28,646 bases of DNA from a virus (Duplodnaviria; Heunggongvirae; Uroviricota; Caudoviricetes): the IMG/VR virus record IMGVR_UViG_2925914267_000001, positions 1-28,646 of that record. The stretch is one strand, 5' to 3'. The position numbers and the translations under genes were made by a program. The notes beneath the pieces were generated by a model. It had not been told where the DNA came from. It made no database searches and was given only the letters and a program-made list of their open reading frames with translations. This document shows positions 1,768 to 6,636 of this stretch, piece by piece (position 1 is the first letter of the stretch; each line of letters begins with the position of its first letter).

Positions 1768-2038
1768 GTATTCGTATTGAAATTGGCGAACGTTATGTCG
1801 TTACCAGTGACAGCTTTCAGTTTATTCTCCACGAGAAAAAGAGAGCGGAAGCGGTAAAAACGCCGGTCAGGAATGGCTGGCGGTGGTTGGTTATTATCCG
1901 AAATTAAGCCAGCTCGTTTCCGGCCTGATGCATCACGATATTCTGACCGGAAGCGCAAAGTCTTTTGCTGATTTAAACGCGCAGGTTGAGCAACTCAGCA
2001 GGCGTTGTTCAGAGGCTTTTGGCTCATATGGCCGTTAA
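1764..2038 (+). pseudogene. orf83-like early gene, reading frame broken by an apparent 1-nt deletion
   Basis: ATG 1764 with GGAG upstream stops at 1905-1907 after 47 codons; a second frame stays open from about 1811 to TAA 2036-2038 with no upstream start and ends in the usual overlap with the A start. The two parts join if one A is restored near 1848-1850. Confidence 0.55.
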
Positions 2039-4103
2039 AGCCTCCGGGCGTTTTGTCCCTCCTTCAGCATTTGCTGCAGGCACCGGTAAGGCGTTTACCG
2101 GTGCTTATGCATGGAACGCGCCACGCGAGGCCGTCGGGCGCGAAAGACCCCTTACACGTGACGAGATGCGTCAGGTGCAAGGTGTTTTATCCACGATTAA
2201 CCGCCTGCCTTACTTTTTGCGCTCGCTGTTTACTTCACGCTATGACTACATCCGGCGCAATAAAAGCCCGGTACACGGGTTTTATTTCCTCACATCCACT
2301 TTTCAGCGTCGTTTATGGCCGCGCATTGAGCGTGTGAATCAGCGCCATGAAATGAACACCGACGCGTCGTTACTGTTTCTGGCAGAGCGTGACCACTATG
2401 CGCGCCTGCCGGGAATGAATGACAAGGAGCTGAAAAAGTTTGCTGCCCGTATCTCATCGCAGCTTTTCATGATGTATGAGGAACTCAGCGATGCCTGGGT
2501 GGATGCGCATGGCGAAAAAGAATCGCTGTTTACGGATGAGGCGCAGGCTCACCTCTATGGTCATGTTGCTGGCGCTGCACGTGCTTTCAATATTTCCCCT
2601 CTCTACTGGAAAAAATACCGTAAAGGGCAGATGACCACGAGGCAGGCATATTCTGCCATTGCCCGTCTGTTTAACGATGAGTGGTGGACTCATCAGCTTA
2701 AAGGCCAGCGTATGCGCTGGCATGAAGCGTTACTGATAGCTGTCGGGGAGGTCAATAAAGACCGTTCTCCTTATGCCAGTAAACACGCCATTCGTGATGT
2801 GCGTGCGCGCCGCCAGGCAAATCTGGAATTTCTTAAATCGTGTGACCTTGAAAACAGGGAAACCGGCGAGCGCATCGACCTTATCAGTAAGGTGATGGGC
2901 AGTATTTCTAATCCTGAAATTCGCCGGATGGAGCTGATGAACACCATTGCCGGTATTGAGCGTTACGCCGCCGCAGAGGGTGATGTGGGGATGTTTATCA
3001 CGCTGACCGCGCCGTCAAAGTATCACCCGACTCGTCAGGTCAGAAAAGGCGAAAGTAAAACCGTTCAGCTTAATCACGGCTGGAACGATGAGGCATTTAA
3101 TCCAAAGGATGCGCAGCGTTATCTCTGTCGTATCTGGAGCCTGATGCGCACGGCATTCAAGGATAATGATTTACAGGTCTACGGTTTGCGAGTCGTCGAG
3201 CCACACCACGACGGAACGCCGCACTGGCATATGATGCTTTTTTGTAATCCACGCCAGCGTAACCAGATTATCGAAATCATGCGTCGCTATGCGCTCAAAG
3301 AGGATGGCGACGAAAGAGGAGCCGCGCGAAACCGTTTTCAGGCAAAACATCTTAACCGGGGCGGTGCTGCGGGGTATATCGCGAAATACATCTCAAAAAA
3401 CATCGATGGCTATGCACTGGATGGTCAGCTCGATAACGATACCGGCAGGCCGCTGAAAGATACTGCTGCGGCTGTTACCGCATGGGCGTCAACGTGGCGC
3501 ATCCCGCAATTTAAAACGGTTGGCCTGCCGACAATGGGGGCTTACCGTGAACTACGCAAATTGCCTCGCGGCGTCAGCATTGCTGATGAGTTTGACGAAC
3601 GCGTTGAGGCTGCACGTGCCGCCGCAGACAGTGGTGATTTTGCGTTGTATATCAGCGCGCAGGGTGGGGCAAATGTTCCGCGTGATTGCCAGACTGTCAG
3701 AGTCGCCCGTAGCCCGTCGGATGACGTTAACGAGTACGAGGAAGAAGTCGAGAGAGTGGTCGGCATTTACGCGCCGCATCTCGGCGCGCGTCATATTCAT
3801 ATCACCAGAACGACGGACTGGCGCATTGTGCCGAAAGTTCCGGTCGTTGAGCCTTTGACTTTAAAAAGCGGCATCGCCGCGCCTCGGAGTCCTGTCAATA
3901 ACTGTGGAAAGCTCACTGGTGGTGATACTTCGTTACCGGCTCCCACACCTTCTGAGCACGCTGCAGCAGTGTTGGATTTGATTGATATAGGGGTGGTTAG
4001 TTGGAATGATGCTGAGGTGATGACAGTTCTTAGGAAGAGATTAAAAGATTACTCACGGGAATTGATGGTATTCAAAGGAAGGGCTAGCCAACGCCCAATC
4101 TGA
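2028..4103 (+). CDS. A: replication initiation protein A (rolling-circle nickase)
   Basis: 691 aa from ATG 2028 (MAVKASGRFVPPSAF...); long match to recalled P2 gpA. The last roughly 50 codons differ from my recollection of P2 and sit in AT-rich DNA. Confidence 0.9.
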   Translation: MAVKASGRFVPPSAFAAGTGKAFTGAYAWNAPREAVGRERPLTRDEMRQVQGVLSTINRLPYFLRSLFTSRYDYIRRNKSPVHGFYFLTSTFQRRLWPRIERVNQRHEMNTDASLLFLAERDHYARLPGMNDKELKKFAARISSQLFMMYEELSDAWVDAHGEKESLFTDEAQAHLYGHVAGAARAFNISPLYWKKYRKGQMTTRQAYSAIARLFNDEWWTHQLKGQRMRWHEALLIAVGEVNKDRSPYASKHAIRDVRARRQANLEFLKSCDLENRETGERIDLISKVMGSISNPEIRRMELMNTIAGIERYAAAEGDVGMFITLTAPSKYHPTRQVRKGESKTVQLNHGWNDEAFNPKDAQRYLCRIWSLMRTAFKDNDLQVYGLRVVEPHHDGTPHWHMMLFCNPRQRNQIIEIMRRYALKEDGDERGAARNRFQAKHLNRGGAAGYIAKYISKNIDGYALDGQLDNDTGRPLKDTAAAVTAWASTWRIPQFKTVGLPTMGAYRELRKLPRGVSIADEFDERVEAARAAADSGDFALYISAQGGANVPRDCQTVRVARSPSDDVNEYEEEVERVVGIYAPHLGARHIHITRTTDWRIVPKVPVVEPLTLKSGIAAPRSPVNNCGKLTGGDTSLPAPTPSEHAAAVLDLIDIGVVSWNDAEVMTVLRKRLKDYSRELMVFKGRASQRPI

Positions 4104-4328
4104 TTATGTTTTGTAATGATAAGTTAATGCTGAATGAGTGGCTCGCGCATAACCTTGCGGGAAAAAGAGCATATTATGTACAGTTTTGAGGTTGGCTAGA
4201 GGGGATGGGCGAGATAGTTTGTGTTTGTGTGGGTTTGAGAAGTTTGATGCGCACATCAAAAATTGATACAACTGATTGAAAAAATGATAAAAAAGCTGTT
4301 AAATGCGTCAGTTTTCTAAGGGGGGAAG

Positions 4329-4454
4329 ATGAAAAAAATAACCAAGAGAAAAGAGAGAGAGATATTTTACGATCCTATTTACATCGTACAGGAAGAGATG
4401 TTGTATCTGCAGGGCGCTCTAAGATTAATCCTATTTCAAAAGCATCAAAAATAA
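4329..4454 (+). CDS. small basic ORF (41 aa) in the island leader, function unknown
   Basis: ATG 4329 follows a G-rich Shine-Dalgarno-like AAGGGGGGAAG; sequence MKKITKRKEREIFYDPIYIVQEEMLYLQGALRLILFQKHQK; AT-rich context; may be spurious. Confidence 0.25.
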   Translation: MKKITKRKEREIFYDPIYIVQEEMLYLQGALRLILFQKHQK

Positions 4455-4624
4455 ATCGTTGGATAAATGCGCAAATTAAAGATGGATTAAATTGCGAAAT
4501 AAGGAAAAATAGAGACCTTTTCCTTACTTTACCTAAAAATGAACTTTTCAAGTAATTACCATCGTACAATGCAAGCCATACAAACGATTAGGCATCTTAC
4601 GGGGCGGAAGATATTTAATAACCA

Positions 4625-5455
4625 ATGTTACCGTCTTTGTTTGTTGACTTTTCGAAGATTGAATATATTTCTGCATCTGCCGCATTGGTATTGACCGCGG
4701 AATTATCAAAATGGGATGATTCGGTAAGGCAACGCATTCGCCCAAAAGTGAAAACGTGGAATAAAAACATACTCTCTCAATTTGATGAGTTGGGTTTTTT
4801 TGACTTATTTAGAAATAAAGATAGTTTTGAGCTTGAAAAAGAAAAGGAACCAAGTAATATCCGTTTTGTTAAGTATATGAAAGGACATTTACATGATGAT
4901 GAAAAAACTCAGCATTTAAAAAAAGAAATAAAGCGTATTGTGGGAGAAGACCTTGGTAAATGGACTTTCCTATACAGTGGTTTGTCCGAAGCTATTACAA
5001 ATGTTGTTCATCATGCTTATCCAGATAATAAAGGCTATCATGAGCATGATAAAAAATGGTATTTAACTGCTTCATATGATAGTTCAAGTAGAATAATAAA
5101 AGTAGTGTTCTATGATCAAGGTATTACAATTCCTGGGTCTTTGCCGGAATCTAAACTCCATGAAAAGGTTTTAAATTACCTTTCGAAGTTACCGCTTGCA
5201 GAACGAAAAAGAGATGAACAATTGTTAAAGGCTGCAGTTGAAATCAAACGTTCTAGTACGGGGGAAGAGGATCGGGGTAAAGGCTTGCAGGACTTGTTGG
5301 AGTTCATAAAGCAACGTGGTGAAGGTTATCTTTCAATTATGAGTGGTAAAGGCCTTTACAAATACTCACAACATGATAAAAAATCTGAGGTAAAATCAGT
5401 AAGCTTCGCTCTGCCTGTTTGTGGTACACTTATAGTATGGAGTACAAAGCTATGA
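4625..5455 (+). CDS. GHKL (HATPase_c) kinase-like ATPase, RsbW/SpoIIAB-like
   Basis: 276 aa; N-box E122-AITN-VVHH-A131 (nt 4988-5017), G1-like D164-Q-G166, G2-like G218-K-G-L221 and G241-K-G-L244; AT-rich; stop overlaps the next start. Confidence 0.6.
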   Translation: MLPSLFVDFSKIEYISASAALVLTAELSKWDDSVRQRIRPKVKTWNKNILSQFDELGFFDLFRNKDSFELEKEKEPSNIRFVKYMKGHLHDDEKTQHLKKEIKRIVGEDLGKWTFLYSGLSEAITNVVHHAYPDNKGYHEHDKKWYLTASYDSSSRIIKVVFYDQGITIPGSLPESKLHEKVLNYLSKLPLAERKRDEQLLKAAVEIKRSSTGEEDRGKGLQDLLEFIKQRGEGYLSIMSGKGLYKYSQHDKKSEVKSVSFALPVCGTLIVWSTKL

Positions 5456-5751
5456 TTACTAGATTGGTTGCTAGCCTCATGAAAACATTGAAGATTGGTT
5501 CAGAGTTCTCGAAAGTTCCCAGAGGCCGCTATCGTACTGACGGGACAGCAAGTGGTGAACGGTTTAGAGAAGATTTCTTAAGAAAGCGTCTAAGCTTGCT
5601 TTCTGCTGGGGAAAAATTGCAGATAGTCATCGATGATGATGTCGAAGGATATGGTTCGTCTTTTTTGGTGGAGGGCTTTGCGGGCATGGTAAAATATGGA
5701 TATATGCATGCCAATGAGTTATTGTCTAAAATTGAAATTAAAATATACTAA
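5452..5751 (+). CDS. small STAS-like (DUF4325-like) protein, putative partner of the GHKL protein
   Basis: 99 aa from ATG 5452, which overlaps the upstream stop as ATGA, with GGAG at 5439-5442; C-terminal IVIDDDVEGYGSSFLVEGFAGMV resembles the STAS-like SSF-motif region. ATG 5437 is an alternative start. Confidence 0.45.
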   Translation: MITRLVASLMKTLKIGSEFSKVPRGRYRTDGTASGERFREDFLRKRLSLLSAGEKLQIVIDDDVEGYGSSFLVEGFAGMVKYGYMHANELLSKIEIKIY

Positions 5752-5822
5752 TCCTGATTTTGATTTCTATAAAAAGAAAATAGAACAATATATCAACGAG
5801 GCGCAGTTTAATTCGAAACGAT

Positions 5823-6485
5823 ATGAGCCAACAGTCGAATAATCCGATGTTTATTTTAGGTGAGGGTTCTGGTGAGTTCTCACCTAGTTTGCTTTTTATC
5901 AAGAAGGATAATGAAGAAGGCCTGAGTGCTACTCATGCAGTTAAGGATATTAATACGATAATTGAAGTAGCTAGTTCTAATATTGTTGATGCAATACGGC
6001 ATCCACCTGAAACGCCTATTTTATCGTCATCACTTATTACGGCTCTTATTAGTACTATTTGTGCGGCCACTGCTGCATTTGCATATAATAAAGTCCATTG
6101 GCGTTCTGTTGTTAAACGGGAGACTAAAACCAAACTCCTGGAGAGTATTTCAGATGTGGTTAATGAGTTGCGTTCTGATGCTATTAGTTATTGGTTGAAG
6201 GGGTATTCAAAAAAGTCGGCGAAGTCTCTCTTAGAAGAGGAAATGAGAATTAAGGCGAGTTTAAATATAATAAATTCGACTATAACAATATATGTTCAGC
6301 AAGAGTCGCGATGGAAAAGAAAGGATATTGAAGCTCAGTTAAGGGTTTTTCATGACGAACTTTTTGATATTATAACAGGTGATGATTTTGAGTCTCAGGC
6401 AAGGAAGCAGGATAAGGCAAAGGTTTCTGCTATTTCTACAAAGTGTGTGGCTTTTCGCGTTTTATTAAATACCATCAAGTTTTAA
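5823..6485 (+). CDS. single-pass membrane protein, putative effector, function unknown
   Basis: 220 aa; hydrophobic helix ILSSSLITALISTICAATAAFAY (about nt 6018-6086); charged K/E-rich C-terminal part; same strand and AT-rich composition as the two genes upstream. Confidence 0.5.
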   Translation: MSQQSNNPMFILGEGSGEFSPSLLFIKKDNEEGLSATHAVKDINTIIEVASSNIVDAIRHPPETPILSSSLITALISTICAATAAFAYNKVHWRSVVKRETKTKLLESISDVVNELRSDAISYWLKGYSKKSAKSLLEEEMRIKASLNIINSTITIYVQQESRWKRKDIEAQLRVFHDELFDIITGDDFESQARKQDKAKVSAISTKCVAFRVLLNTIKF

Positions 6486-6617
6486 GATAGCCATGCATGA
6501 GTTTGGTGCATGAAAATGCATGAGGTTTTACGAATTATTTTGGCTAAAATCAGCCTGCCCTGACTGGCTACGGCAGATATCATGCACCTGCATTAAAACC
6601 GCCCCATGAAGCGGGCG

Positions 6618-6636
6618 GGCGAGGCGGGGAAAGCAC
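6618..6636 (+). other. cos: cos site, 19-nt cohesive end GGCGAGGCGGGGAAAGCAC
   Basis: Exact match to the P2/186 cohesive-end sequence as I recall it; located between the cargo island and Q, as expected for the packaged genome termini. Confidence 0.8.

Follow-up and report, generated by a model that had tools for sequence, protein, structure and literature searches.

A kinase–STAS–membrane protein cassette in the A–cos hotspot of a P2-like prophage, a candidate phospho-switch module of the VapKSC type

We analyzed a 28,646-nt stretch of viral DNA (IMG/VR record IMGVR_UViG_2925914267_000001; hereafter, the window), which is a P2-like prophage with cox, gene A (1986–4103), a cargo region, cos, and then the portal and terminase genes on the minus strand. 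Three co-oriented AT-rich genes fill the cargo region between the gene A stop codon (4103) and the cos 19-mer. We denote their products K (a STAS–GHKL kinase-like protein), S (a small STAS-like protein of the DUF4325 family), and T (a membrane protein). Our favored interpretation, which we hold at a probability of roughly 0.55, is that K, S, and T together form a phospho-switch module of the VapKSC type, an accessory cargo of the P2 A–cos hotspot. The analysis shows the folds of the proteins, homology to VapK and VapS, strict conservation of the catalytic residues of K and of Ser70 of S, conservation of the gene triad, and its mobile and defense-linked contexts; from the analogy with VapKSC we infer that S binds T, that K phosphorylates S, that T is toxic, and that the cassette has anti-phage activity. 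A previous sequence-only reading of the window had placed the cassette at 4625–6485. It had the genes, their order, their AT-richness, and the A–cos slot right, but the start was misplaced, the true one being 4329.

Architecture and conservation of K, S, and T

Matches of K to known kinase families were weak: Pfam HATPase_c_2 fell below its cut-off (E = 0.004–0.006), and the NCBIfam RsbW and SpoIIAB models were sub-threshold (E = 0.009–0.09). A hidden Markov model (HMM) search of all PDB sequences with the K and S profiles returned nothing meaningful. The fold of K was therefore taken from a predicted structure. An AlphaFold2 model made from 49 homologs (pLDDT 77, pTM 0.76) had SpoIIAB as its top Foldseek match, and K is modeled as a basic helical extension of ∼55 residues followed by a STAS domain and a SpoIIAB/RsbW-like kinase domain. 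The N, G1, G2, and G3 boxes of the GHKL serine-kinase fold are present in K: E222 and N226 (N box), D264 and G266 (G1), and G318 and G320 (G2) were invariant in 125 out of 125 diverse relatives, and G367 and T368 (G3) were nearly so. The earlier assignment of protein 1 to RsbW/SpoIIAB-like GHKL proteins thus agrees with the predicted fold, the Foldseek match, and the invariant boxes, but it missed the N-terminal 100 residues and the protein's own STAS domain, because indels split gene 1 in the window. The HMM and structure searches gave no sign of a fold other than GHKL in protein 1 or of a protein 2 unlike STAS.

The K family is large, with 2571, 1688, and 491 clusters at 50% identity for E-value limits of 1e-3, 1e-10, and 1e-30, respectively. 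Nearly all relatives are without an informative name, being "hypothetical" or "uncharacterized" in the protein collection and at most "ATP-binding protein" in RefSeq. A PHROGs search placed K in phrog_3364 and S at the C terminus of phrog_5816, both families of unknown function. Residues 1–55 of K (window 4329–4493) form the conserved basic extension MKKITxKQRxRDV ... NxWID, modeled as two helices; CapK, a kinase discussed below, has a helix–turn–helix (HTH) domain of unknown role at this place. Two serines, Ser116 and Ser118 ("ISASAAL", K residues 114–118, window ∼4666–4680), lie at the N terminus of helix alpha-2 of K's STAS domain, the position where SpoIIAA-type STAS proteins get phosphorylated, and are invariant among close relatives. 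The wider family has merely 57%–66% Ser/Thr at these positions (66% at position 116, with Ala commoner at position 118), and we do not claim a cis-phosphorylation site there.

Intact S scores 24.1 bits with Pfam DUF4325 ("STAS-like"), above the gathering score of 23, and the same family was matched by all 28 S homologs from other genomes (best E = 3.8e-14), in agreement with the earlier description of protein 2 as STAS-like. DUF4325 was the only domain found in a Pfam scan of 28 S proteins, with no winged helix–turn–helix (wHTH) or other DNA-binding domain. Ten residues are invariant (P23, G25, R26, G35, F38, R39, S70, F71, E74, and G78), and the C-terminal tail of ∼30 residues is conserved.

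No protein family matches T, and a weak hit to Pfam RsbRD_N (E = 0.08–0.09) was treated as chance. T had been described as a single-pass membrane protein, and one hydrophobic segment is indeed what we found, with a Kyte–Doolittle maximum over 19 residues of 1.78 in Escherichia coli and a median of 1.99 among homologs (n = 29; at least 1.6 in 25). The flank C-terminal to the transmembrane (TM) helix is the more positive one in 27 out of 29 homologs, which suggests by the positive-inside rule that the C-terminal domain is cytoplasmic. In the AlphaFold2 model of T, residues 1–41 are disordered, residues 80–220 are predicted with high confidence (pLDDT ∼90), and the TM helix runs into a four-helix bundle. 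Residues 1–57 (window 5847–6017) make up a low-confidence N-terminal tail in enterobacterial T, and many distant homologs have no such tail. Two motifs, Y123-W124 and T-G-D-D-F-E-S, are conserved, with recognizable variants even in the most distant homologs. Protein searches recovered few T homologs (28 and 38) because T diverges quickly; distant T genes were found via synteny.

Homologs of the three genes occur in the same order across Gamma-, Beta-, Delta-, and Alphaproteobacteria, with identities of 48%–100% for K, ∼23%–66% for S, and ∼20%–83% for T. Such conservation across four classes indicates that the genes are real and not chance open reading frames (ORFs). A scan of our genome collection with the K profile found 29 loci, including ones in Nitrosomonas, Colwellia, Photobacterium, Shewanella, Vibrio, Alteromonas, Pseudidiomarina, Aliidiomarina, Marinobacter, Lysobacter, Desulfocapsaceae, Desulfuromusa, Caulobacteraceae, Rhodospirillaceae, and a Candidatus Entotheonella metagenome-assembled genome. 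K, S, and a TM-helical T were contiguous on one strand in 27 of these loci, often with overlapping stops and starts; the two exceptions were a truncated K without S or T and a short fragment. The Entotheonella locus (L035:7530–8750), one of the 27, has an insertion sequence (IS) element with an rve integrase directly after S, and a remnant T-like ORF lies ∼3 kb downstream, parted from S by the element. The K–S–T order was also observed in Cycloclasticus, Methylotenera, and Klebsiella.

The genomic settings of the triad are diverse. It occupies the A-to-portal slot of a Serratia P2/186-like prophage (58% K identity), sits between the replication and late genes of a Klebsiella lambdoid prophage, and in Methylotenera shares an island with methylase, ParB-like, and integrase genes. 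In Yersinia enterocolitica, a triad with 90% identity lies in a non-P2 chromosomal island (L041:7620–8765), and a TIR_2/DUF3298 protein is encoded directly after it; in a sister strain (L040), genes for a LysR regulator and an MFS transporter take that place instead. In three Idiomarinaceae genomes (L023, L024, and L025; Pseudidiomarina and Aliidiomarina), K starts ∼20 bp after hsdR, the gene of a type I restriction (R) subunit of ∼1050–1080 aa. Recurrent families among the 129 flanking ORFs were phage integrases (four), ResIII (four), type I restriction-modification (three loci), SWI2/SNF2 (three), AAA_21 (three), and transposases. These contexts, as a tally made without a statistical enrichment test, are suggestive of a mobile, defense-linked module. 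Genes Fhv_0046–0048 of Francisella phage vB_FhiM_KIRK, an unrelated temperate phage, lie beside cI and the integrase, and we take them to be probably another such triad. According to the published table of that phage, they encode a hypothetical protein of 293 aa, a DUF4325 protein of 112 aa, and a TM protein of 125 aa (PMC7924643).

VapKSC provides the closest point of reference. It consists of VapK (STAS–GHKL), VapS (a STAS protein with a C-terminal helix, an antitoxin with the conserved residue S48), and the PIN toxin VapC (Chambers et al. 2026, PMC13373217). It confers ∼100-fold protection against phage Bas42, which is abolished by VapS S48A, VapC D28A, or VapK F54A; S48 is proposed as the phospho-acceptor, and phosphorylation of VapS by VapK was inferred, not demonstrated, in that study (PMC13373217). 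We took the VapK and VapS sequences from its supplementary model file. A broad K profile (125 sequences) aligned with VapK in HHalign (probability 96.2%, E = 2.7e-9) over 269 columns, pairing K 61–375 with VapK 10–289 through both STAS and GHKL, and a narrower first profile aligned in the GHKL half alone (E = 2e-5). VapS is itself a DUF4325 protein (62.7 bits, E = 2.7e-17), and a 28-sequence S profile aligned S70 with VapS S48. Pairwise scores were low for both K against VapK (15.8 bits) and S against VapS (10.4 bits). The sequence-only reading had offered a kinase–antagonist pair gating a membrane effector as a plausible abortive-infection design, for which VapKSC now provides an experimentally characterized relative.

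Proposed mechanism and competing explanations

By analogy with VapKSC, the cassette is best read as an abortive-infection or toxin–antitoxin phospho-switch module. In this scheme K would be the sensor, a STAS–GHKL serine kinase; S, the DUF4325 protein, would act as inhibitor or antitoxin; and T would be the effector, anchored in the inner membrane by its one helix with the four-helix bundle in the cytoplasm. In resting lysogens, S bound to the cytoplasmic bundle would keep T inert. An infection-associated cue would switch K on, K would phosphorylate the invariant Ser70 of S, and phospho-S would set T free. T would then compromise the membrane, probably by oligomerizing, and growth would halt before the invading phage finishes its cycle.

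Several results weigh against this scheme. Outside the shared Pfam family, the similarity of S to VapS is weak (HHalign E = 0.0096, 16% identity), and a 4-sequence S profile gave no significant match to VapS; the link between the two therefore rests mainly on DUF4325 and the aligned serine. The cassette has no phosphatase to reset the switch: no ORF for a PP2C phosphatase, or for a sigma factor, was found between gene A and cos or in the top 25 flank families of the 29 loci. The aromatic residue that VapK (F54) and CapK (W68) need for activation by single-stranded DNA (ssDNA) corresponds to K residue 114, a column that varies among the 125 sequences (22 E, 18 K, 14 T, 13 S, 10 Y, and others; Tyr in E. 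coli), so the trigger is not transferable by homology, and we did not adopt ssDNA as the cue for K. A fold search with the T model returned generic four-helix bundles alone and no enzyme fold, and T has no detectable similarity to known toxins. Its TM segment is only moderately hydrophobic in E. coli (1.78), and the ∼57-residue tail before the helix would need to cross the membrane if T is N-out. Finally, PADLOC v2.0.0 had no family for K, S, or T, truncated or intact, even at E up to 10, and the cassette, catalogued by Rousset et al. (2022, PMC9122126), was outside the systems that they cloned.

A broader version of the same idea is that K–S–T is a widespread unnamed abortive-infection family, in which a VapK-like kinase would respond to a cue other than ssDNA and, through phosphorylation of a DUF4325 antitoxin, free a new class of membrane effector (TM helix plus four-helix bundle). 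The non-ssDNA cue is suggested by the non-conserved ssDNA-stacking residue. We consider this version a serious candidate, if one with odds somewhat short of even. Under it, the GHKL–STAS pair would be a general, effector-swappable immune sensor with a PIN nuclease, a membrane protein, and a transcription factor as its three alternative outputs, and P2 phages, P4 satellites, lambdoid prophages, and chromosomal islands would trade the module with one another.

The generic bundle of T and its lack of toxin likeness leave room for a sensor or anchor role. T might then perceive, for example, envelope perturbation or DNA injection, the output would be phosphorylation of host or phage proteins by K, and S would regulate K as SpoIIAA or RsbV do their kinases; we regard this arrangement as unlikely. 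A similarly low likelihood attaches to the proposal that the cassette is a kinase-controlled toxin–antitoxin, addiction, or stress module that stabilizes the prophage or answers general damage, with no dedicated anti-phage role. VapKSC itself acts as a toxin–antitoxin that answers DNA damage, and the study that describes it emphasizes how stress response and immunity shade into each other (PMC13373217). Some triads do sit among housekeeping genes, such as that of Cycloclasticus between an ABC transporter and uvrB, and about a quarter of P2 hotspots carry non-defense cargo such as partition systems. On the other side, the cassette recurs in P2 and P4 defense hotspots, in prophage moron positions, and in restriction-modification or TIR neighborhoods.

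It is very improbable that K–S is a CapK/CapS-like transcriptional regulator pair with T merely a regulated cargo gene: K and CapK do have a STAS–GHKL core in common, with an extra N-terminal helical region in K where CapK has its HTH, and K–S does lie directly downstream from type I restriction-modification in the three Idiomarinaceae genomes, as do 20% of capKS loci (PMC13373217), but S has no wHTH or other DNA-binding domain and DUF4325 is its sole Pfam hit, its architecture (STAS plus a short C-terminal helix) is that of VapS and not of CapS, and T is invariably the sole downstream gene, co-varying with K–S.

If the VapKSC-type reading is right, the kinase–STAS phospho-switch would serve as a modular sensor that can be coupled to unrelated effectors, a membrane-active one included; to date it has been characterized with just two outputs, the PIN toxin of VapKSC and the repressor of CapKS. 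Partner switching, the classic control of sigma factors, would extend into phage immunity as a general principle, and the testable systems would gain a three-gene one that escapes current annotation tools. Ser70, the kinase N box, and the cytoplasmic bundle of T offer clear mutational handles, and, with the ssDNA residue not conserved, one may ask which signal this branch of K senses.

The window copy, its intact alleles, and the borders of the cassette

The E. coli 720632 record NZ_CP025842.1 opens with the window, at 100% identity, and there the cassette appears broken. The same DNA in E. coli HCM-28C-2 encodes three intact genes of 376, 129, and 212 aa. Relative to that genome, the window has two substitutions and four indel sites: gene 1 is hit at 4349, 4538 (2 nt), and 4639, and gene 2 is split by a 1-nt insertion at 5740. 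Gene 1 is 1131 nt long (376 aa) in 14 other E. coli genomes and in a second copy within the same record, and its true start in the window (Table 1) is preceded by a ribosome-binding site, AAGGGGGG. The ORF at 4625–5455 is therefore the C-terminal 276 residues of the 376-residue K, and its start is an indel artifact. An ATGA at 5452–5455 places the start of gene 2 on the stop of gene 1, an overlap that had been noticed before and is borne out here.

The second copy is the same prophage with its cassette intact; it lies at the end of NZ_CP025842.1 (4,792,220–4,816,445), opens with the same cox gene, and encodes proteins WP_032254602, WP_198515647, and WP_032254601. Another intact allele is at positions 1240532–1242691 of NZ_AP038246.1. 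The two prophage copies in NZ_CP025842.1 abut across the record origin, and the simplest explanation is an untrimmed circular-assembly overlap with poor consensus. The duplicated stretch corresponds to window 1–∼24,150; the end copy decays in its tail genes instead.

A dead pseudogene remnant in the window could be read from the frameshifts at three indel sites of gene 1 (4 nt altogether) and at one of gene 2, and from the many frameshifted phage genes that adjoin them (portal, terminase, scaffold, and capsid genes are flagged as frameshifted by the NCBI Prokaryotic Genome Annotation Pipeline, PGAP), but the abutting intact copy at the other record end, the nature of the indels at 4639 and 5740, which (unlike the other two) are single-base length changes in T or A runs, of the type seen in long-read errors, and the intact copies at ≥99% identity in fourteen other genomes leave this explanation scarcely credible. 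The window allele, corrupted by assembly errors, is thus not the one to clone; the intact allele is the proper reference for any cloning.

Comparison with 86 P2-like phage genomes (megablast) located the borders of the cargo. P2-type homology stops at ∼3971–4008, within the final ∼40 codons of the A reading frame, and the ∼2.6 kb of cargo up to its return had no megablast match among 50,697 phage records, which substantiates the earlier remark that the genes are absent from P2 itself. GC content is 0.30–0.44 in the cargo region versus 0.50–0.60 in the flanks. In every carrier inspected, PGAP labels gene A "replication endonuclease, missing C-terminus"; together with the non-P2 tail of the A frame, this places the cargo recombination junction inside A. 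The cassette occurs at ≥99% identity in 15 out of 5426 complete E. coli genomes, in the P2 A–cos hotspot. A scan for promoter consensus sequences found 12 sites of the kind listed upstream of gene 1, where 7.6 were expected in the region, so that site is merely a candidate.

Table 1. Coordinates of the cassette genes and flanking features in the window
Feature	Position	Strand	Description
Left junction	3972..4103	+	Last ∼32–44 codons of the gene A frame, of non-P2 sequence; megablast match ends and GC drops from here
Promoter candidate upstream of gene 1	4235..4263	+	Sigma-70-like, TTGAGA-17-AAAAAT, 9/12 consensus matches; weak evidence
Gene 1 (K)	4329..5455	+	Predicted basic N-terminal helices, STAS, and SpoIIAB/RsbW-like GHKL kinase; 376 aa if intact
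Gene 2 (S)	5452..5842	+	DUF4325 STAS-like with C-terminal helical tail; 129 aa if intact (120 aa from Met10, as in homologs)
Gene 3 (T)	5847..6485	+	212 aa (220 aa from the ATG at 5823); disordered N-terminal tail, one TM helix, predicted cytoplasmic four-helix bundle
Right junction and cos core	6575..6636	+	P2-type homology returns at ∼6575–6581; exact match to the P2/P4 cos core 19-mer at 6618–6636

Comparison with known systems

The hotspot between A and Q was defined by Rousset et al. (2022, PMC9122126), and the very same cassette, down to the accessions, appears in Table S5 of that study as "hypothetical + DUF4325 + hypothetical", NZ_CP025842 included. The statement in the sequence-only reading that the combination matches no named defense system is thus consistent with the empty PADLOC v2 result, but the combination itself was already on record. 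A 2026 preprint on P2 and P4 reports that most of the unannotated hotspot cargo tested was defensive and does not mention the triad, and K–S–T was not described in the literature that we searched on DUF4325 and on GHKL combined with STAS and phage. One validated system of the P2 hotspot, Rst_3HP, is composed of three hypothetical proteins. Identity with it was rejected, as the K, S, and T profiles score at most 1 bit against the three E1114 proteins, whose lengths (341, 355, and 226 aa) are unlike those of the cassette.

The same catalogue holds a more distant counterpart, P4-hotspot system #69 ("HATPase_c | DUF4325"; nine occurrences in Table S1B, PMC9122126). This homologous triad, in the cos-adjacent hotspot of the P4 satellite, has a K of 396 aa and an S of 112 aa, which score 52.9 and 96.8 bits, respectively, against our profiles, and a third protein of 166 aa with one TM helix and the layout of T. 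It differs from the cassette as a divergent allele, with third proteins that have no detectable sequence similarity (≤5 bits). With system #69 in a P4 satellite and the cassette in P2, the same type of module is present on helper phage and satellite. Abortive-infection systems with transmembrane effectors described by Rousset et al. (2022), for example, 2TM+1TM+TIR (phage AC1), RT-nitrilase+1TM, and hydrolase+3TM, share the hotspot and a plan in which a sensor or enzyme works with a small membrane protein, the presumed killer of the cell. They have a TIR, a reverse transcriptase, or a HAD hydrolase in place of the kinase–STAS pair, and no sequence relationship to the cassette.

Compared with SpoIIAB–SpoIIAA and RsbW–RsbV, the cassette is without a sigma factor or a PP2C phosphatase, its kinase is fused to its own STAS domain, and its presumed output is a membrane protein and not transcription. 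CapK–CapS, found in CBASS, Bub, and Thoeris operons, is nearer: it too pairs a STAS–GHKL kinase of the ssDNA-activated type with a STAS substrate that has a conserved Ser, and it too is sometimes located just downstream from restriction-modification systems. CapK (HTH–STAS–GHKL) is activated by ssDNA and phosphorylates CapS (STAS–wHTH) on the conserved serine (PMC13373217). Unlike S, which has no DNA-binding domain, CapS has a wHTH and represses transcription. CapKS also precedes multigene immune operons, whereas K–S is followed by T alone and then by cos (in P2) or, elsewhere, by unrelated genes.

The likeness to VapKSC is the closest. Both are three-gene operons with the order STAS–GHKL kinase, small DUF4325 STAS protein with a C-terminal helix, and effector (a role that we presume for T), and both are often near defense genes. 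They differ in the third gene, which in the cassette encodes a one-TM four-helix-bundle protein and not a VapC/PIN nuclease, in the additional N-terminal extension of ∼55 residues in K, and in the ssDNA-contacting aromatic F54 of VapK, which is not conserved in the K family. As the PIN toxin is missing, the cassette should not be filed as a member of VapKSC; most likely, it works like VapKSC with a different, membrane-bound effector.

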